Of a stretch of 60,228 nucleotides of DNA, positions 39,019 to 60,052 are shown one piece after another. The notes beneath the pieces are model-generated. The model was not told the origin of the DNA and did not search any database. It was given only the letters and a program-made list of their open reading frames with translations. The stretch is from a virus. Its lineage: Duplodnaviria; Caudoviricetes. Position numbers and translations under genes: made by a program. Location: positions 1 to 60,228 of the IMG/VR virus record IMGVR_UViG_3300017971_000310. One strand, given 5' to 3'. How positions within the stretch are numbered: the first letter of the stretch is position 1; every line of letters begins with the position of its first letter.

Positions 39019-39756
39019 TCAGAAGTCATCTAATCCTTCACATGCGCCAAGCAGCCAAGCGTCGCATTTCCTATTCCACGCCATACACGCCTCCCGGTTA
39101 TGACGGCCAGGGAATTCTGCCCTAGTCTTAAGTTCGTGCCTCAATGTTAAAATCCTATCCTCATATTCCGATACCTGCTGTGGAGTGCGTGTTGTTGAAT
39201 ACCAGTATATATCTCCGGTGTCTTTGACGCCCACGCAGAAGGCCACATTATGGCATCCTGTTAACCAGGCGTATCCTGTTAGCTGATCGCTCAATTCGAC
39301 ATCCCTGTCTTCGTATGGTCTACTGGCCGTCTTCCAATCAATAACAGTTCTTACACCATCGACCATGCCAATGCAATCCACCTTCCCGACATAATGATCG
39401 TTAGCCATCATCTGCTCACTGATTACTGGCTCGAACTTCAGCTGCTGTAATTTCTGGTCAAAGTTGTCAATCAAGCGACTCCCAATAGCTATCCAATACT
39501 CCGGGTTCGGCCCCTTGCCTTCTCCCTCCCTATAGGATTTTTCAAAAACCTGCTTAGCCATTACGGCAGGATATTCTTCCTCTTTCCATCCGTGGCACAG
39601 TGCCTCCATCCCATCGTGAAGGGCGATGCCAAAACACAGGGGCTGAGGTTTCTCCTCCATCCTGATTTTTAATATGTAACTAATGTACCAAAGTTTCGGA
39701 CATTGCTGATACATGCTAACTTGCGTATTCGATAATTTGCCTATTTGACGATCCAT
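39019..39756 (-). CDS. PD-(D/E)XK nuclease (RecB/Cas4-like exonuclease)
   Basis: YQQCP, FGIALH, GKVD, IDWKT, QLTGY, C-terminal Cys cluster. Confidence 0.85.
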   Translation of the reverse strand: MDRQIGKLSNTQVSMYQQCPKLWYISYILKIRMEEKPQPLCFGIALHDGMEALCHGWKEEEYPAVMAKQVFEKSYREGEGKGPNPEYWIAIGSRLIDNFDQKLQQLKFEPVISEQMMANDHYVGKVDCIGMVDGVRTVIDWKTASRPYEDRDVELSDQLTGYAWLTGCHNVAFCVGVKDTGDIYWYSTTRTPQQVSEYEDRILTLRHELKTRAEFPGRHNREACMAWNRKCDAWLLGACEGLDDF

Positions 39757-40349
39757 CTAATAACCTCAAAGCTTTCTGCGTAGTCCCATCCCATCTGCGC
39801 GCCTCTGACACGTGCCAAGGACCTTATAAGATCTCCCTGCATATACGGCCGGTCCTTCTGGCTTTCAAAATACTCTAGGGCGCTTGTCTTAAGCGCCACA
39901 TCCGGTTCCTCTAGTTGTATGAACCCAGCAGCCTCAAAGTCTATGTTATTCCAGGGGAGCTCATAACCTAATATGCACGTATGCTTAAATGCACGCATAG
40001 CCTCCCTAGTTACAGTAGCATGGTCTTGGTGTATATCGAACGTATTGGGAGTCAACACAATATCTACCTGCCCACGCATTTCAACCAAATTCTCTAGAAT
40101 GCCTTGGCGTTGACGTGGGAAGTCCCTAGTGGGGTAACGATAGATTTTTATATTGTTGACAGGAATTCCTAGAACATGGGCAGCCTTAGTCACCTCTGCT
40201 GTTGCTACTGCTGGGGCTATAGTCTGTGTAGAAAGAGAGAATACAGTATAGTAAATCTCATCCCCCCTGCCTATAAAATATGGTATGCTACCTCCAGCCC
40301 CCAAGATACCGTCATCTATGTGAGGGCTGAGGACCAATATACGTCTCAT
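39741..40349 (-). CDS. PIG-L/LmbE family N-deacetylase
   Basis: LVLSPHIDD..LGAGG, DIHQDH, YELPWN, AESF. Confidence 0.88.
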   Translation of the reverse strand: MRRILVLSPHIDDGILGAGGSIPYFIGRGDEIYYTVFSLSTQTIAPAVATAEVTKAAHVLGIPVNNIKIYRYPTRDFPRQRQGILENLVEMRGQVDIVLTPNTFDIHQDHATVTREAMRAFKHTCILGYELPWNNIDFEAAGFIQLEEPDVALKTSALEYFESQKDRPYMQGDLIRSLARVRGAQMGWDYAESFEVIRWIVK

Positions 40350-40899
40350 GAGCCTCCTTCTCTGTAATGATCAGCTCGCTCTGTTGTCCAGTTTCAATAA
40401 ATCGTTCTATAGCATTGGTAGCTGCTGCTGCTGTTAATCTCAGTATCCTTGCACCTAATAGATGGGTACATACTGGGTTATTTTCCACTTCCTCTTGTGG
40501 CATAGGATATCTGTTGTTCCACGCTATTAGCCCAACCCTATCCACAGACACCCCAATGTGTATAGTCGACCGTAGAGGGGATTGTGTAAATCCCCTAGCA
40601 GCAGGATTATCAAATGTATCTACTACTAATGGTTCCCCATCCTGTGCCGGCAGATACCATCGTATATTTCTTTCTACCCGCACAAATATAGGGTTGGTTC
40701 TTCTACTATTCTTAAGATATAGCATTTCCGCCAATGTCTGAACTTTGGTCATCCCAATGTGTACTCTACTATAAGCAGATGTCCCAATGTTCTCTTCTCC
40801 AACCCTATCGTTATCGATTAGATGTAGGGTGTGATCCCCGACCAGGTGCATAGCTATTTGACTACCCAATGCTCCGCAGCCAGCCAGAACGATATCCAT
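40312..40899 (-). CDS. ThiF/E1-like adenylyltransferase
   Basis: GCGALGS, IDNDRV..EN, K, VVDTFDN..AR, distal Cys (NPVC). Confidence 0.85.
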   Translation of the reverse strand: MDIVLAGCGALGSQIAMHLVGDHTLHLIDNDRVGEENIGTSAYSRVHIGMTKVQTLAEMLYLKNSRRTNPIFVRVERNIRWYLPAQDGEPLVVDTFDNPAARGFTQSPLRSTIHIGVSVDRVGLIAWNNRYPMPQEEVENNPVCTHLLGARILRLTAAAATNAIERFIETGQQSELIITEKEAHETYIGPQPSHR

Positions 40900-41154
40900 T
40901 CACTGTCCTTTCATAGGGACACAGCTTATGCCCCTAGCATACACTATGTAGCATATATTATTATGGTCTACATCTATAAACCTGGTCACTTGATAGGTCT
41001 GCTGTGGCCCATCCACCCAAAATACCTCACCCTGTATAATGGGTTCTCGAATAACCTCGACAGGCGTAACTAGCTTTGTGCTAGGAGCACAAGAGTTTAT
41101 TATAATGCTTACAATAACTATAAGCACAAGACAAAAGAATATTCTTATATCCAT
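40900..41154 (-). CDS. small lipoprotein-like/membrane protein
   Basis: Hydrophobic N-terminus ending INSC; two more Cys near the C-terminus. Confidence 0.6.
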   Translation of the reverse strand: MDIRIFFCLVLIVIVSIIINSCAPSTKLVTPVEVIREPIIQGEVFWVDGPQQTYQVTRFIDVDHNNICYIVYARGISCVPMKGQ

Positions 41155-41993
41155 AGCCCCTCATCCATATCGAATCTGTGTAGTTCTCGAGCACGTTGCA
41201 TAGCCAAGGCTAGTGAAGCTAAGTCATGCTCGCTGTCTGTTCCTTCCATACAGATACCAGCGGAGATTGCCATACCACTTCTAGATATAGTGGCGGTATG
41301 TCTGGCCCCACCATATTCCCAGGTCACATTATACCCGTCGCTGGCATTGGACCAATCTAACAGCTCTGCTCCAACTAAAGACAGCTGATAACGAAACTCC
41401 CCCTCTACGCGTTTACGGTCTTCTAGAAGAGCCTGTTGTTGCCTAGCCTGCTCCCTGACTTTACGTAAAGTGTCTAGTCTATCTTGTACCAATGCTCTGG
41501 CCCGGAGCATATCAGGAGTGGTTTCTCTGGACAGAAACGGATATAGATGAAACAACAAGTTCCCACCCAGTACACCAGCAGACACAGGGTCCAATGGGAC
41601 TGGCTGCCCACGAACTAGATGTATCGGTCTTGGGATGGCTTCTTTCCAGCCCTTTTGTGAGGCATCACTAGCATTGTAGGGAGTACATAACCATGTAGTA
41701 TCAGAGAGGGGATACAACATTATAACGTTTATGTGCCGCAAGGAGACTAGAAAACGCAGATACTCTTCTGGTGTTGCCTCCCGATCTAGCTCAGCCATGT
41801 GTTCAAGGGTGGGATGTGCGTCCATTTTCCACCAGCCCACAGGCCAGTTTCGTACCCTAAATGTATAGGGAAACCCATCCTGGACAATGAATACCTCTGT
41901 AGTTTCACTGTCCAGAATGGGAGCTATAAAGGGACGGAGCGTATGCTGTTCTAGCCTATTCAGTGCCTCAAATAAACTAGCCCCACTAGACAT
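41145..41993 (-). CDS. hypothetical protein, possible E2-like C-terminal domain
   Basis: ATG 41993 after SD-like AGAGG; C-terminal RHT...SAGICMEG with a Cys in a GIC[LM] context; E2 assignment is inference. Confidence 0.55.
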   Translation of the reverse strand: MSSGASLFEALNRLEQHTLRPFIAPILDSETTEVFIVQDGFPYTFRVRNWPVGWWKMDAHPTLEHMAELDREATPEEYLRFLVSLRHINVIMLYPLSDTTWLCTPYNASDASQKGWKEAIPRPIHLVRGQPVPLDPVSAGVLGGNLLFHLYPFLSRETTPDMLRARALVQDRLDTLRKVREQARQQQALLEDRKRVEGEFRYQLSLVGAELLDWSNASDGYNVTWEYGGARHTATISRSGMAISAGICMEGTDSEHDLASLALAMQRARELHRFDMDEGLWI

Positions 41994-42336
41994 CCTCTGG
42001 TCCAATCCACGTATTGTATATAGCTGTTCCCTGCTTCTTCCAACCAAATCTACCAGAGATTGTATCCCCGTTCATATGTGGAATCATTTCCACCATATCC
42101 CTGACCGTGAATCTAAACTTTATACCATGTATGTCTTCGAATACTAATCCCCCTGTACTGCGAGAGCTGAACCAATCCACCAATTTTAACGTAGACACGA
42201 AGGGGCGGGCTACCCGTAGTGCATATCTCTCTTGGTAGTATTTACTCCAGATTTCACCATAGCTATTCACAAACCAGGCATCCCCATGTGCTGGTTGCCC
42301 CGTTTCCTTATGGTAAGGAATCTTGAACTTAGCCAT
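41986..42336 (-). CDS. hypothetical protein
   Basis: ATG 42336 with SD GGAGG, coupled to both neighbours. Confidence 0.65.
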   Translation of the reverse strand: MAKFKIPYHKETGQPAHGDAWFVNSYGEIWSKYYQERYALRVARPFVSTLKLVDWFSSRSTGGLVFEDIHGIKFRFTVRDMVEMIPHMNGDTISGRFGWKKQGTAIYNTWIGPEDV

Positions 42337-43825
42337 TCTTAACCTCCAATATGCGGGGAATCTCTGTCTGTACAATTACATCCAAGATTGAAGTAACGGC
42401 CGGTCCACCCAATAGAGCTGTCACTTGATCGTAGATATAATAGTCCCCTGTGAATGGAAATACTTGAATTGTATAGCCTTCCTGTCTCAAATAACTCTGC
42501 AAAACATTGGGGTCCGTACCACGAAATTGTATCATTACCAATACAGGGGTCTTACCTGTTTCCTCCTCATACTGCCTCAATTCTCTAGACAACTGATTAC
42601 GATTCTCGCCCCCATCCGTTAACAATACGATCTTATCCGGGTTTCTGCCCATTCTACGTGATAGCTTGAACGCCTCGCTATGTAATGTGCCACCACCAGC
42701 CCGGACACCCCTAAGGACTTTCTTAACGTCTTGATAGGGATGACCAGTATCAGCTACTTTAAGCTGTCTGGCCACATCGTTATGGATAAAAATCTTACCG
42801 TCTTCGCACAAGGGCAATATTCGCTCGGCGAATCTTGGAGCCTCTTCGATGGGCACCTGCATTGAATAACTATGGTCTAGGTAAATGTCTGTCTGTCCCC
42901 CAATTGGTTCTTGAGCCGCAATAGCCTTTTCCTGGGATGCAGCCATAGCGGCATCTACCTCTTTATCTGATCCCTTGGAGCTCTTACGGTGGTCACTGGA
43001 TGCCACTGATTTAGTGGCCTGGCTGATTTTATCAATATAAGCCTGCTTAAACTCTGGAATATTGAGTAACCCCAATCGCTCGACCCTTGCCCGGATGTTC
43101 TGTGCTTGGGTGGGGGTCATAACGGCTAGCCTAATCAACCAGCTAGCGGTTGACCCGTCCAATACAGATTGTAGGATGCGGTCGTCTATCCTATTGTCAA
43201 CCGCCAATTGCATTTGTTCCCTGGGATTATCTGCGTTGGCTATCTGCTTGAGAACACCCAATTTGCTATCCTTTGGTACAGGACCATATAGCAAAGCATG
43301 CAGATATGGGCATTGTTCGGGATCCATATGATAGTGACGCCACACTGCCTTACCCGCCGACCTATTCTGTAGCATAACCCCATCGGCCCGGCCGTGGTCG
43401 CCTTCCAGCATCCCATAATAGTGTTTCATAATGGTGGCCATTCTACGGGGCAGCTTCTTGCTAGACTCTCGGATATAACGTTCAATCCTAAAGATGCGAT
43501 ATGGGGGCAACCCATCGAGGTTATCTGGCTCTGTACTGTATACATCACTACCCAAGAGTAGCGCCTGACCAGCATTACGATAATCCAGGGCCAGATCAAA
43601 GTCCCCTACTATCAGCGGATTGCTCTGTAGCAGGGCTATAATGGCACAGTCCTGCTGATCTCGAATAGCTGACTTTTGGGCCATATATACACAAGCCCTT
43701 GCTGTAAAATCGGGGTCCTCCTGTAACGCTCCAGTCAAGGCTGGAACAAGTTTAGAATAGTCCTTATGGGGAACCTCCATAAATGATCTCCACAAAGCCA
43801 TCCGTGCCTGAGATTGCTCTACCAT
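42329..43825 (-). CDS. TROVE/Ro60-like protein with C-terminal vWA domain
   Basis: Helical N-domain with EDPDF..RA.VY...IRD (Ro60-like); MIDAS DHSYS, GGGT, LLTDGGEN; SD AAGGAG. Confidence 0.7.
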   Translation of the reverse strand: MVEQSQARMALWRSFMEVPHKDYSKLVPALTGALQEDPDFTARACVYMAQKSAIRDQQDCAIIALLQSNPLIVGDFDLALDYRNAGQALLLGSDVYSTEPDNLDGLPPYRIFRIERYIRESSKKLPRRMATIMKHYYGMLEGDHGRADGVMLQNRSAGKAVWRHYHMDPEQCPYLHALLYGPVPKDSKLGVLKQIANADNPREQMQLAVDNRIDDRILQSVLDGSTASWLIRLAVMTPTQAQNIRARVERLGLLNIPEFKQAYIDKISQATKSVASSDHRKSSKGSDKEVDAAMAASQEKAIAAQEPIGGQTDIYLDHSYSMQVPIEEAPRFAERILPLCEDGKIFIHNDVARQLKVADTGHPYQDVKKVLRGVRAGGGTLHSEAFKLSRRMGRNPDKIVLLTDGGENRNQLSRELRQYEEETGKTPVLVMIQFRGTDPNVLQSYLRQEGYTIQVFPFTGDYYIYDQVTALLGGPAVTSILDVIVQTEIPRILEVKNG

Positions 43826-44050: not shown

Positions 44051-44081
44051 AATAAGAAACAGCCCCGGTTTCCCGGGGCTG
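44051..44081 (-). terminator. intrinsic terminator closing the ncRNA cluster
   Basis: CAGCCCCGG-GAAA-CCGGGGCTG followed by TTTCTTATT. Confidence 0.85.
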
Positions 44082-44089
44082 CCCATCGC

Positions 44090-44171
44090 CCCAGACCATT
44101 GTCAATAATAATCCACTGCACCGTGAACGCCACACACAATAACTATCGGAGGAGCTTTATGTAGGTCTGGG
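44090..44171 (-). ncRNA. possible fifth structured RNA (E)
   Basis: Closed by an 8-bp stem CCCAGACC/GGTCTGGG; inside the promoter-terminator unit; no tRNA arms recognised. Confidence 0.35.
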
Positions 44172-44184
44172 TTGATCCTTTCTA

Positions 44185-44314
44185 GTGACGTGGTGGCGTG
44201 TAGTGCTTTATTTGTTTCTCTCAGTGGGAATTGAACCCACAACCTATGGTTCCTAATACCATAGCTCTTACATTGAGCTATAAAGATTGTGAGCACCAAA
44301 CTAAGTCACGTCGC
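44185..44314 (-). ncRNA. tRNA-mimic RNA A (cloverleaf on an extended closing stem; Y-RNA-like)
   Basis: D arm GCTC/GAGC, anticodon-like arm ATGGT-ATTAGGA-ACCAT, T arm GTGGG-TTCAATT-CCCAC; outer helices GGTGCT/AGCACT and GACGTG/CACGTC. Confidence 0.75.
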
Positions 44315-44326
44315 GTTTTCTTATAC

Positions 44327-44456
44327 AATAGCGTAGTAGCCAACAGAACAATTTTCTATACTCGATGGGACTCGAACCCATACTAACGCCATTCCAGGGC
44401 GTTGCCTTTTCCGATTTGGCAACAAGTGTGTGTGTTCCATTCAAAGCCACGCTATT
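44327..44456 (-). ncRNA. tRNA-mimic RNA B (cloverleaf on an extended closing stem; Y-RNA-like)
   Basis: D arm GCC/GGC, arm ACGCC-CTGGAAT-GGCGT, T arm ATGGG-TTCGAGT-CCCAT; outer helices GGAACA/TGTTCT and AATAGCGT/ACGCTATT. Confidence 0.78.
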
Positions 44457-44469
44457 CTATTGTTAAAGG

Positions 44470-44582
44470 AGGGCCGGGCTGGAATCGAACCAGCAAAAGT
44501 TTGTGAATACACATAGTAAGTCACGAAACCGTGTTAGCCTAGGGTATTGTTTCAAACGAGTATAACCACATATACCCGGCCC
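44470..44582 (-). ncRNA. tRNA-mimic RNA C (anticodon arm replaced by long bulged hairpin)
   Basis: Acceptor GGGCCGG/CCGGCCC, D-like GTATA/TATAC, T arm GCTGG-TTCGATT-CCAGC, long arm GTTTG...CAAAC capped CACG-GTTT-CGTG. Confidence 0.78.
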
Positions 44583-44750: not shown

Positions 44751-45326
44751 CTACCTCAAATGCCCGATAAAGCTAAGACTACTTTTCCCATGGAGGTATT
44801 GCCAGAGCCCATCATAGTCCAATACCTCTTGCTTACAGAACGTAGTTGGTCCTATAGCCCCCTTCTTCTTGTTACATCGTTTACAGGCTGAGATATAATT
44901 AGACAAGTCATTATCCCCACCCATTTCTAGGGGTATGAAATGGTCCACTGTCATTTGGACGTCTCCCATTTTAGCCCCGCAGTATAAGCACTGAAACCCA
45001 TCCCTGGCCCAGACTTTCTGTTGAATGGCCCCACTAATCGCATACTGCTGTTTACGAACTATGGCTTTGGGGTTCCAGTGTTCATTATCCTTAAAGAATA
45101 CGGGATCATCCGTCTGCTTGAGAATAGCACACCACTCCTCCAGGGTGGGGTCCGCCAGGCAAATATCGTTTGGGACAATTAACTGATTGGCTGTGGGGGA
45201 CATCAATAGTATGTTTTCCCCCTGCCCCTGCAGAAGGATGCCCGATATCTTCAACAGATGTCCAGCATCCTCTATGTATACTGGCCTGTCCGTATTCGGA
45301 TATTTTAACTCGTAGAGTCTACCCAT
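44751..45326 (-). CDS. HNH endonuclease with N-terminal extension
   Basis: RDGFQCLYCG..TVDHFIP..GG.N..SN...ACKRCNKKK; ATG 45326 overlaps the upstream gene end. Confidence 0.88.
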   Translation of the reverse strand: MGRLYELKYPNTDRPVYIEDAGHLLKISGILLQGQGENILLMSPTANQLIVPNDICLADPTLEEWCAILKQTDDPVFFKDNEHWNPKAIVRKQQYAISGAIQQKVWARDGFQCLYCGAKMGDVQMTVDHFIPLEMGGDNDLSNYISACKRCNKKKGAIGPTTFCKQEVLDYDGLWQYLHGKSSLSFIGHLR

Positions 45327-45606
45327 AGGTAAATTCCGCCCCCACCAGAATGACATTGCCCTCCGCTGGACGGCTAACCTTACGTCCCCTCAATGCCCCT
45401 GGTTCCATTACATCGGCCATATGGCGCTCAATTCGTTCTAGCAACTGGTCATCGGGAACCAGCATTGGGTCGTCTGGCATAGCAATGTCGCTGTAAGGAA
45501 ACTCGTGGATTTGGGCATCGGCTCCACGTCCCACAATTACCCGTACAATTGGTCCTGTATCCGTAACGGTGACCTCTGTTTCAAATAGTTCAGTATAGGT
45601 GTCCAT
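45319..45606 (-). CDS. small acidic protein, ubiquitin-like/sulfur-carrier candidate
   Basis: 95 aa, strand-strand-helix-strand-strand pattern, ends ...VILVGAEFTYG; SD AAGGAG; fold assignment is inference. Confidence 0.55.
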   Translation of the reverse strand: MDTYTELFETEVTVTDTGPIVRVIVGRGADAQIHEFPYSDIAMPDDPMLVPDDQLLERIERHMADVMEPGALRGRKVSRPAEGNVILVGAEFTYG

Positions 45607-59608: not shown

Positions 59609-59677
59609 ATATCCCCCTATTAATGTTTTGCCCTGGTTTTCTTAATATAGATTTCTTATACATGGTAGCCTTTAATA

Positions 59678-59749
59678 TGGGCCGCCCCGGATTTGAACCA
59701 GGAACTGTCGGGTTACAGCCGAGTATGATGCCGATTTCACCAGCGACCC
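59678..59749 (-). tRNA. tRNA-Tyr(GTA), short variable loop
   Basis: Acceptor GGGTCGC/GCGGCCC+A, loop CTGTAAC, T arm CCTGG-TTCAAAT-CCGGG. Confidence 0.8.
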
Positions 59750-59754
59750 AGGAG

Positions 59755-59827
59755 TGGATCCGGCAGGGCTCGAACCTGCGACTGACCGTTTATGAGACGG
59801 CTACTCTAACCACTGAGTTACGGATCC
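59755..59827 (-). tRNA. tRNA(CAT), Ile2 or elongator Met
   Basis: Acceptor GGATCCG/CGGATCC+A, loop CTCATAA, T arm GCAGG-TTCGAGC-CCTGC. Confidence 0.9.
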
Positions 59828-59829
59828 AG

Positions 59830-59903
59830 CACTCCCGATGCGATTTGAACGCATAACCCCTGGATTAGAAGTCCAGCGCTCTATCCAATTGAGCTACGGG
59901 AGC
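59830..59903 (-). tRNA. tRNA-Arg(TCT)
   Basis: Acceptor GCTCCCG/CGGGAGT+G, loop CTTCTAA, T arm ATGCG-TTCAAAT-CGCAT. Confidence 0.9.
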
Positions 59904-59908
59904 GTATA

Positions 59909-59979
59909 CGGGCCGGGGAGGACTCGACCCTCCAGCACTGGTTTTGGAGACCAGCCGCTTACCATTAACGAACCGACCC
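59909..59979 (-). tRNA. tRNA-Trp(CCA)
   Basis: Acceptor GGGTCGG/CCGGCCC+G, loop CTCCAAA, T loop GTCGAGT (G in place of T54). Confidence 0.8.
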
Positions 59980-59981
59980 CA

Positions 59982-60052
59982 AGCCCCTATCTGGATTCGA
60001 ACCAGAACCGGGGCAGTACAAATGCCCTGCCCTACCATTAGGCTATAGGGGC
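59982..60052 (-). tRNA. tRNA-Thr(TGT)
   Basis: Acceptor GCCCCTA/TAGGGGC+T, loop TTTGTAC, T arm TCTGG-TTCGAAT-CCAGA. Confidence 0.85.

Follow-up and report, generated by a model that had tools for sequence, protein, structure and literature searches.

Whether bacteriophages can run a ubiquitin-like conjugation of their own, and on what target, is the question raised by a cluster of genes in the IMG/VR virus record IMGVR_UViG_3300017971_000310 (Caudoviricetes). The complete record, which is linear, 60,228 bases long and has a completeness estimate of 72%, is the window analysed here. To our knowledge, bacterial ubiquitin-like conjugation has been studied so far in host defence systems, namely Bil, Bub and the Cap2/Cap3 proteins of the cyclic-oligonucleotide-based anti-phage signalling systems (CBASS). 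On the minus strand of the window, a first-pass annotation had read two nearby genes as a minimal relay between a ubiquitin-activating enzyme (E1) and a putative conjugating enzyme (E2), with a TcdA- or Urm1-like role of the E1 in tRNA modification as the alternative. The first gene encodes a short ThiF-like protein, here called the mini-E1, and the second a protein with a cysteine near its C-terminus, here called g300 (Table 1). The two seem to supply the enzymes at the centre of a conserved phage cassette, one that resembles a ubiquitin-like conjugation system reduced to a minimum and joined to a Ro60 ribonucleoprotein. The reading that we favour, and to which we would give about an even chance, is a thioester relay from the E1 to a cysteine of an E2 analogue of non-canonical type, which would work on the phage Ro60 particle or next to it.

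Judged by its sequence, the mini-E1 is a member of the E1/ThiF superfamily. It matches the ThiF family of Pfam (PF00899) with an E-value of 1.3e-8 and 34.8 bits, for a cut-off of 28.1 bits, and it carries the motifs GCGALGS at residues 7-13 and DTFDN..R at residues 94-102. Its only two cysteines are C8, in the glycine loop, and C144, so that there are no CxxC pairs; the earlier description of a protein with ThiF motifs and a distal cysteine, devoid of CxxC, is thereby borne out. Across a family of 34 homologues of 159-207 residues, positions G7, C8, G9, A10, G12, S13, D29, K52, D97, R102, C144 and T145 are invariant, and N141 and P142 nearly so. Among them, K52 and R102 correspond to the basic residues of the adenylation site. 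The profile of this family matches MccB, UBA6, UBA5, NAE1/UBA3, MoeB, Uba4, ThiF, TcdA, SAE2, Cap2 and BubCD in the PDB, and most of these matches end inside the Rossmann core, whereas the one with UBA6 extends further. In this last alignment D97 falls on Asp569, the segment NPVCT on ..PFCT, and C144 and T145 on Cys625 and Thr626. The Cys625 residue of human UBA6 is described as the catalytic cysteine, and Asp569 as a predicted Mg2+ ligand (PMC9391358). Because D97, C144 and T145 align with these UBA6 residues, the mini-E1 appears to be of the thioester-forming kind, of which it retains the active-site signature (PxCT). There is no Cys-domain insert, zinc site, ubiquitin-fold domain (UFD) or other E2-recruiting domain, and the chain ends about 50 residues past C144. 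The E1-E2 models of PADLOC match the family profile along its first 60 residues.

The open reading frame (ORF) of g300 spans 41145-42047 on the minus strand, with homologues beginning at its Met19, which gives a gene of 41145-41993 and agrees with the end coordinate of the first-pass annotation. The motif SAGICMEG that had been noticed in the C-terminal domain of this protein is found at residues 244-251 of 282. While a word-indexed search returned just 5 g300 proteins, an exhaustive profile search, the one used here for family size, recovered 714 cluster representatives at E<=1e-3, a number that falls to 118 when the threshold is set to E<=1e-30. The conservation of the cysteine among homologues, which had been proposed as a check, is complete: C248 is present in 114/114 aligned full-length representatives and in 28/28 full-length copies encoded in the related phage loci described below. 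In the 114 aligned representatives, P25 and C248 are the sole invariant positions, and the motif around the cysteine reads S-A-G-[IFV]-C-[LM]-x-G-x-D across the family. Since no second conserved cysteine exists in g300, a metal site or a disulfide at C248 is unlikely. From the alignment, C248 is no accident of one sequence and is conserved to the degree of a catalytic residue.

An AlphaFold2 model of g300 based on the 114-sequence alignment was predicted with high confidence (pLDDT 95.6, pTM 0.79), and was taken instead of an unusable one from 5 sequences (pLDDT 55.8). The predicted chain starts with two five-stranded OB-like barrels (residues ~20-72 and ~86-150) and a 46-residue helix (~160-205), which are followed by a C-terminal domain of ~75 residues where four short strands lead into the Cys loop, with a helix after it. 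Residue C248 lies in the loop between the four-strand meander (last strand 241-244) and the helix at 258-270. This makes g300 a candidate E2 analogue of a new architecture, as far as sequence comparison goes without detectable ancestry in the UBC fold of canonical E2 enzymes. A 3144-residue database protein (P0165) that scored against the first barrel was rejected as a g300 relative: it consists of WW-like units repeated in tandem dozens of times without a difference, and is probably an assembly or gene-calling artefact.

The association of both proteins is widespread among uncultured phages. A pattern search based on the E1 alignment gave 35 IMG/VR loci in records from 25 to 572 kb, 32 of them left after the removal of near-duplicates. 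Gene content was tallied in these 32 loci, all of them found through the E1, by tblastn, clustering and then hidden Markov model (HMM) searches; the Ro60, JAB and tag models were built from these same loci, which makes the counts for these three families more a description of the set than a test of it. There are five recurrent families, plus an HNH endonuclease, and the genes lie all on one strand in the order small Gly-ended protein, stem-enclosed tRNA-like RNAs, Ro60 homologue, g300, usually a JAB protein, and mini-E1. g300 was detected in 28 loci, Ro60, g300 and E1 together in 24, JAB in 22, the tag in 16 and all five in 13. Wherever Ro60 is present, g300 adjoins it (24/24 loci), while four loci (L006, L014, L021 and L031) contain g300, JAB and E1 with no Ro60 detected within the stretch taken. 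A contig from a Chloroflexota metagenome-assembled genome, found through g300 and not used for the Ro60, JAB and tag models, displays the equivalent order tag(..LYG)-Ro60-g300-E1. Among 50,697 cultured or GenBank phage records, the E1 was found in 2, g300 in 0 and Ro60 in 1. The sole GenBank phage record with both a mini-E1 and a Ro60 homologue is LR756511.1, an unannotated 595-kb uncultured phage, where the two genes are ~4.5 kb apart on one strand (280748-287213, minus).

The Ro60 homologue and the tRNA-like RNAs, both missing from the first-pass annotation, define the context of the cassette. By itself, the 498-residue protein of the window matched no Pfam family and no PDB sequence. A profile of 22 homologues aligns with human RO60 (9nen; 2.9e-19) from profile positions 113-423 to residues 145-499, covering the TROVE and vWA domains, and also with Xenopus Ro (1yvp, 1.3e-14), with phage and bacterial TROVE proteins (9l5y and 9kop, 3.1e-9) and with Deinococcus Rsr (2nvo, 3.3e-6). 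A relative matches the vWA_Ro60 family of Pfam, and the DxSxS residues of the metal ion-dependent adhesion site (MIDAS; D317, S319 and S321) are invariant in the homologues. On the strength of these profile matches, the protein is a Ro60 homologue with TROVE and vWA parts. A self-conjugated substrate in the style of the CD-NTases, which would have a conserved C-terminal glycine on the Ro60 homologue, was rejected, as the 24 locus copies compared have tails unlike one another.

Both tRNA-like genes of the window combine class-II anticodons with a class-I length and no long variable arm, and the Rfam alignment of the second ('Leu TAG') leaves a gap in its acceptor stem. Each is closed by a long stem in which its two flanks pair: the first element has a fold z of -1.9 and a flank duplex of -25.9 kcal/mol, compared with a control median of -11.9, and the second a fold z of -2.8 and a flank duplex of -20.9 kcal/mol. 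Odd tRNA-like genes also occur beside the tag or Ro60 genes in many related loci (short 'Leu', anticodons ATT, ACA and TTA, 'SeC', and one undetermined), as one to three stem-enclosed elements directly upstream of the Ro60 gene. Over 15 such elements the median flank duplex is -26.6 kcal/mol, versus -11.9 for 42 ordinary tRNAs from the same loci and the window (Mann-Whitney p 7e-7). Five ordinary-looking tRNA genes of the window (Tyr, Met, Arg, Trp and Thr), clustered at the record end (59677-60052, minus strand), provided flanks for these controls. The stem-enclosed elements are candidate phage Y RNAs: a tRNA-like module beside a Ro60 gene, enclosed by a stem of its 5' and 3' ends, is the architecture of bacterial Y RNAs. 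The YrlA model of Rfam gives 17.7 bits at 44413-44524, under its threshold of 69. Farther upstream there is a possible third element bearing a T-arm (44471-44582, minus strand), with sub-threshold Rfam scores for tRNA-Sec (23.2 bits) and YrlA (17.7 bits).

As the tag, the first-pass annotation had chosen the product of 45319-45606, a 95-residue protein here called g95. In 17 aligned loci, a family of small proteins of 66-100 residues, hereafter the tag family, is encoded upstream of Ro60, with an invariant P-x4-G that forms the C-terminus or stops no more than two residues short of it in 17/17 aligned members; an additional member, in L028, has a long tail beyond that glycine. Both g95 and its two database homologues end in ..TYG. 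When g95 was compared with the 17-member family by hhalign, its last 58 residues aligned to the family C-terminus with a probability of 44.8% and an E-value of 2.2e-4, and the tag-HNH-Ro60 order of the window is repeated in L002, L012 and L028. Searches of g95 with phmmer and jackhmmer against six-frame segments of the loci gave no significant relative, the two best non-self matches (E 0.63 and 1.5) being members of the tag family, and in the ESM Atlas g95 reached scores <=0.79 and no family. Sequence and synteny therefore make g95 probably the tag of the E1, and the earlier choice of this terminal-glycine product probably a right one.

As far as sequence tells, the fourth recurrent family of the cassette is a JAB metallopeptidase: it comprises 20 clustered proteins, with the metal-site motif HxHx7SxxD in the members displayed, and the Prok-JAB family of Pfam (PF14464) matches 3 of the 4 members tested, 1 of them above the cut-off. 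The presence of this peptidase goes together with the form of the tag. Tails past the tag glycine occur in 6/13 loci containing a JAB and in 0/7 without it (Fisher p 0.044, with 3 of the 20 tag assignments weak). In the window, which is the entire record, neither the JAB HMM nor Prok-JAB, a Pfam model of low sensitivity for this JAB branch, found a JAB gene, although a record that is 72% complete leaves its absence from this phage unproven; Prok-JAB was also missing from the full records that contain L009 (95% complete) and L001 (100% complete, with terminal repeats). Because JAB is absent from the window and from these two full records, there appears to be a JAB-less clade that includes the phage of the window, and whose tags are encoded already ending in glycine.

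Further genes accompany the cassette in a few of the related phages. In L006 (4464-7125), L020 (5523-8004) and L027 (5607-7833), a longer E1 of 221-255 residues is followed by a ThiS/Ub-Mut7C-like protein ending in GG(+1-2), and then by two conserved proteins of ~500 and ~200 residues without a Pfam family, a set that looks like a second ubiquitin-like (Ubl) module attached to the cassette. A MoxR-type AAA+ ATPase with a DUF2201 metallopeptidase/vWA-like partner occurs in or beside the cassette of L016 (9282-11562) and L020 (2409-4788), and Band_7/SPFH proteins do so in L004 (6915-7769) and L006 (1315-2139).

The observed features, namely the E1 and Ro60 family memberships, the invariance of both cysteines, the linkage of the genes and the association of JAB with extended tags, can be arranged into a plausible mechanism. 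The mini-E1 would adenylate the C-terminal glycine of g95, and the tag would then move onto C144, the canonical PxCT cysteine, as a thioester, from where it would be handed to the invariant C248 of g300, the E2 analogue. The OB-like part of g300 would dock on RNA, or on the particle of Ro60 and Y-like RNA, thereby directing the tag onto a protein of the particle or bound to it. In those phages that have it, the JAB peptidase would mature or remove the tag. We infer the adenylation of g95 and both thioesters from family signatures, invariance and linkage, and the target at the Ro60 particle from position and fold class only.

Several observations weigh against this relay, most of them concerning the reading of g300 as an E2. 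None of its 114 members matches an E2 family of Pfam at E<=1 or a Cap2-type E1-E2 model of PADLOC, and the g300 profile finds nothing relevant, and no E2, among PDB sequences. When the whole-chain model was searched with Foldseek against the PDB and BFVD, nothing reached E<=1e-3, and no UBC chain is among the 50 matches listed for each library. These lists are dominated by the OB-like barrels, and include OB-type nucleic-acid-binding barrels (HIN, exosome cap subunits, CSD, S1, IF1 and Mpa). In size, the ~75-residue Cys domain is half a UBC core. An HPN-type motif upstream of the catalytic cysteine is a feature of E2 enzymes, and no HPN-like motif is conserved in the alignment columns before C248 in the 114 sequences. 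The ESM Atlas offered no usable feature match for g300, with structure matches of TM<=0.31 from a poor Atlas model. As for the remaining components, a tag-family HMM built without g95 misses g95 at E<=1, the tag profile has no Ubl match in Pfam (17 members) or among PDB sequences, and no E3-like gene appears in the cassette.

A complex of the mini-E1 and g300, predicted from the two family alignments, shifts the odds of binding only a little. It was graded as 'weak support', with a median ipSAE of 0.51 against 0.30 for the best control, in three runs that agree in >=94% of contacts and with a partner pLDDT >=82. In the calibration of this procedure, the mark was reached by 58/80 solved complexes and by 2/110 mismatched pairs, but the range of scores <=0.60 contains 7 of the 80 solved complexes together with both passing mismatches. 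By the procedure's own account, a pass of this grade is wrong in the majority of cases if the pairing was not already probable, which also tells against the relay.

These results give some room to a scheme where no E2 takes part. Archaeal systems of the SAMP/UbaA type employ an E1 without an E2, and the mini-E1 could likewise activate and transfer the tag alone, g300 then serving the Ro60 particle as an RNA-binding subunit or as its main target, with its cysteine otherwise employed. The absence of detectable E2 ancestry in g300, the nucleic-acid-binding OB, S1 and HIN barrels that are its best structural neighbours among the matches listed, its constant position beside Ro60 in the 24 loci that have both, and the weak score of the complex would all be in keeping with such a role. 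However, if g300 did nothing but bind, it would be difficult to account for a lone cysteine that is invariant in 114/114 sequences and lies within a conserved G-[IFV]-C-[LM] loop, and g300 keeps closer to the E1 than to Ro60 (28 loci with g300, 24 with Ro60). We regard the E2-independent scheme as unlikely.

The literal claim of the first-pass annotation, that the C-terminal domain of g300 is a true E2, would be a special case of the relay that we favour, with an extremely diverged UBC fold. An E2 core consists of a helix, a four-strand meander, the loop with the cysteine, a short turn and a helix, and the g300 model has its elements in this same order; the local motif G-I-C-L resembles the active-site context of E2 enzymes as well. 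This helix-4 strands-Cys loop-helix topology is compatible with a UBC core without being specific to it, and equally fits other small alpha/beta folds. With the missing UBC chain among the listed structural matches, the lack of a profile match to any E2 family (PDB sequences, Pfam and PADLOC), the half-sized domain and the unconserved HPN motif also against it, we find true UBC descent rather improbable. In favour of the relay through g300, no other E2 came up: the families UQ_con, Prok-E2_A and Prok-E2_B were not found at E<=1 in 5 cassette-bearing phage records, two of which are 95% and 98% complete. The minimal E1-E2 relay of the first-pass annotation is partly supported: a thioester-type E1, an invariant cysteine, the linkage of g300 to the E1 in 28/32 loci and the JAB and Gly-ended proteins, which commonly accompany E1-E2 systems, speak for it, whereas the membership of g300 among E2/UBC proteins finds no support in Pfam, PADLOC or the Foldseek matches listed.

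A second route that dispenses with conjugation is a sulfur relay, where the E1 would adenylate the small protein to yield a thiocarboxylate, in the manner of the ThiS/MoaD/Urm1/TtuB systems, and C248 would bear a persulfide, the sulfur finally going into an RNA bound by the OB-like domains or Ro60. An E1, a Gly-ended small protein and a JAB also mark sulfur-carrier operons, according to Iyer et al. (PMC1779556), and the context of tRNA-like RNAs would suit the chemistry. The best NCBIfam matches of the mini-E1 are ThiF models, though its scores are far under the equivalog cut-offs (45.9 versus 159 for ThiF, 18.7 versus 449 for MoeB), and in a few related phages the ThiS-like protein directly follows the longer E1. 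Against it, the conserved neighbours include neither a rhodanese nor a cysteine desulfurase nor a PP-loop ATPase, the E1 retains the PxCT Cys-Thr pair of conjugating E1s, and the tag ends in a single glycine after an aromatic residue, all of which leaves this relay improbable.

Still less credit goes to the idea that the mini-E1 acts on a carboxylate other than that of a protein tag, either as TcdA does on t6A in tRNA or as MccB does on a peptide C-terminus, with g300, g95 and Ro60 as general RNA-handling neighbours. The top PDB matches of the E1 profile are indeed MccB (5.9e-9), with TcdA at ~2e-6 to 4e-6, and tRNA-like RNAs lie inside the cassette. Yet these matches span the Rossmann part only (profile positions 2-92 and 2-103), which is common to the whole superfamily, while the match that reaches the cysteine is UBA6; moreover, a co-inherited JAB and an invariant terminal glycine have no role in a TcdA-type reaction. 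The TcdA- or Urm1-like alternative of the first-pass annotation is weakened by the PxCT motif and by the lack of PP-loop, rhodanese or desulfurase partners among the conserved neighbours, and keeps a small share of the probability. Faintest of all seems an RNA acceptor, with g300, whose two RNA-binding-type barrels adjoin the putative thioester cysteine, joining the activated tag by an ester bond to a ribose hydroxyl or the 3' end of an RNA, either a tRNA-like Y RNA or one threaded into Ro60, a view in which the Gly-acyl-adenylate of the E1 may be likened to aminoacyl-tRNA synthetase chemistry and JAB or another hydrolase could release the protein-tagged RNA.

The thioester relay through g300 would have several implications. 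The cassette recurs in very different uncultured phages, whose records measure 39 to 572 kb, and uses the smallest E1 that still has the canonical catalytic Cys-Thr pair. If g300 does take the thioester, a scaffold without detectable kinship to UBC would prove able to acquire the function of an E2, and a very small system would become available for studies of E1-to-E2 transfer. For a family of at least 714 protein clusters, there would now be a function to test. The linkage with Ro60 and tRNA-like Y RNAs connects protein tagging with RNA surveillance, and offers a route to the role of phage Ro60 particles.

In the window, the structural genes occupy the plus strand as far as ~36 kb, and the genes for replication and accessory functions, among them PolA, a clamp-like gene, PD-(D/E)XK and HNH genes, form a module on the minus strand. 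The cassette sits inside this module, in the order g95, HNH, two tRNA-like genes, the 498-residue gene, g129, g300, g84, the ThiF-like gene and PIG-L, with densely packed genes and overlaps of 8-47 nt between several neighbours (Table 1).

Table 1. Features of the cassette region of the window, with positions counted from its first base.
Feature	Position	Strand	Basis
Mini-E1, 195 aa; Rossmann adenylation core and short helical tail only	40312..40899	minus	Pfam ThiF
Catalytic-type Cys C144 of the mini-E1	codon 40468-40470	minus	family invariants, UBA6 alignment
g300, 282 aa; candidate thioester acceptor (E2 analogue)	41145..41993	minus	conservation, AlphaFold2 model
Invariant Cys C248 of g300	codon 41250-41252	minus	homologue alignment
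Ro60 homologue, 498 aa; TROVE-like helical part and vWA with MIDAS	42329..43825	minus	profile of 22 homologues
g95, 95 aa, ending in ..TYG; probable ubiquitin-like tag and E1 substrate	45319..45606	minus	hhalign, synteny
tRNA-like element 1, ARAGORN 'Ser GGA', 73 nt; candidate Y-like RNA	44357..44429; with terminal stem ~44325-44465	minus	
tRNA-like element 2, ARAGORN 'Leu TAG', 71 nt; candidate Y-like RNA	44216..44286; with terminal stem ~44178-44322	minus	
Terminator-like G+C-rich hairpin then U-rich run, downstream of the tRNA-like elements	44052..44103	minus	Rfam sX12 sub-threshold match
HNH endonuclease gene, between the tag gene and the Ro60 module	44751..45356	minus	Pfam HNH 9.2e-13
g129, unclassified ORF between Ro60 and g300	41986..42375	minus	
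g84, small ORF; hydrophobic N-terminus then Cys	40900..41154	minus	phrog_3224 1.5e-5, function unknown
PIG-L/LmbE-type metal-dependent deacetylase gene	39741..40349	minus	Pfam PIG-L 8.1e-13; phrog_11796

Four of the genes interspersed with the cassette call for a comment. Relatives of the HNH protein (40-49% identity) are encoded at the equivalent position in L002 (2580-3158), L012 (4131-4649) and L028 (2929-3489), and its N-terminal part of 100 residues is unclassified; we take the gene for a probable mobile insertion outside the relay, such as a homing element that prefers this site, the alternative being an unrecognised component of the cassette. g129 has no family match in Pfam, PHROG and NCBIfam searches and no tblastn match in the 35 related loci. 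g84 occupies the position that the JAB gene has in other phages; it is not a JAB itself, the JAB HMM having found nothing in the window, and it too lacks a tblastn match in the 35 loci. The PIG-L gene overlaps the E1 stop by 38 nt, its product scoring 2.3e-6 against the BshB1 model of NCBIfam, far under the cut-off, and it has no tblastn match in the 35 loci, its linkage to the E1 being seen only in this window. A PIG-L amidase as a substitute for JAB was rejected, with position as its sole support and the gene missing from all 35 related loci.

How does the phage cassette compare with what has been described before? No paper linking Ro60 or TROVE proteins with E1, JAB or Ubl genes came up in searches of full texts, and an earlier mention elsewhere is possible. 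In the portion covered of a survey of jumbo phages, the phage ROT/TROVE proteins are mentioned only as a platform for RNA repair (PMC7824862), and a preprint on Asgard viruses reports Ro60 and three ThiF homologues in one virus, unconnected. With the E1 families of sulfur-carrier and tRNA-modifying pathways (ThiF/MoeB and TcdA), the mini-E1 shares the Rossmann adenylation core and the Mg2+/ATP residues; unlike them, it has no C-terminal Zn-binding CxxC pair, its equivalog scores are far too low, and its cysteine is found in a PxCT context.

With Ro60/Rsr and the Y RNAs of the YrlA type, among them the Ro60 gene with two upstream Y-like RNAs of the Thermus phage phiLo (PMC12135203), the cassette has in common a TROVE and vWA protein with a MIDAS and stem-enclosed tRNA-like elements directly upstream. 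The RNAs of the window differ from YrlA in keeping a full anticodon arm and in staying under the Rfam threshold. The part of the phiLo report that was covered mentions no E1, JAB or Ubl partner (PMC12135203), whereas here Ro60 is followed by g300, JAB and E1 in 24/32 loci.

The closest parallels are with the Bil, Bub and type II CBASS Cap2/Cap3 systems and with the prokaryotic Ubl-conjugation operons described by Iyer et al. in 2006 (PMC1779556), which also have on one strand an E1 with a catalytic cysteine, a JAB, a small protein that ends in glycine, and another protein whose cysteine is invariant. Unlike Bil, Bub and CBASS, the cassette is carried by phages and not by host defence islands, its JAB is dispensable in one clade, and its E1 of ~190 residues has no zinc site, UFD or fused E2, while the Cys partner lacks a UBC signature, possesses OB-like barrels and is linked to Ro60 and tRNA-like RNAs. 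The parts list itself was already known, and what sets the cassette apart is the phage carrier, the minimal E1, a Cys partner of no known family, and the linkage to Ro60 and Y-like RNAs.

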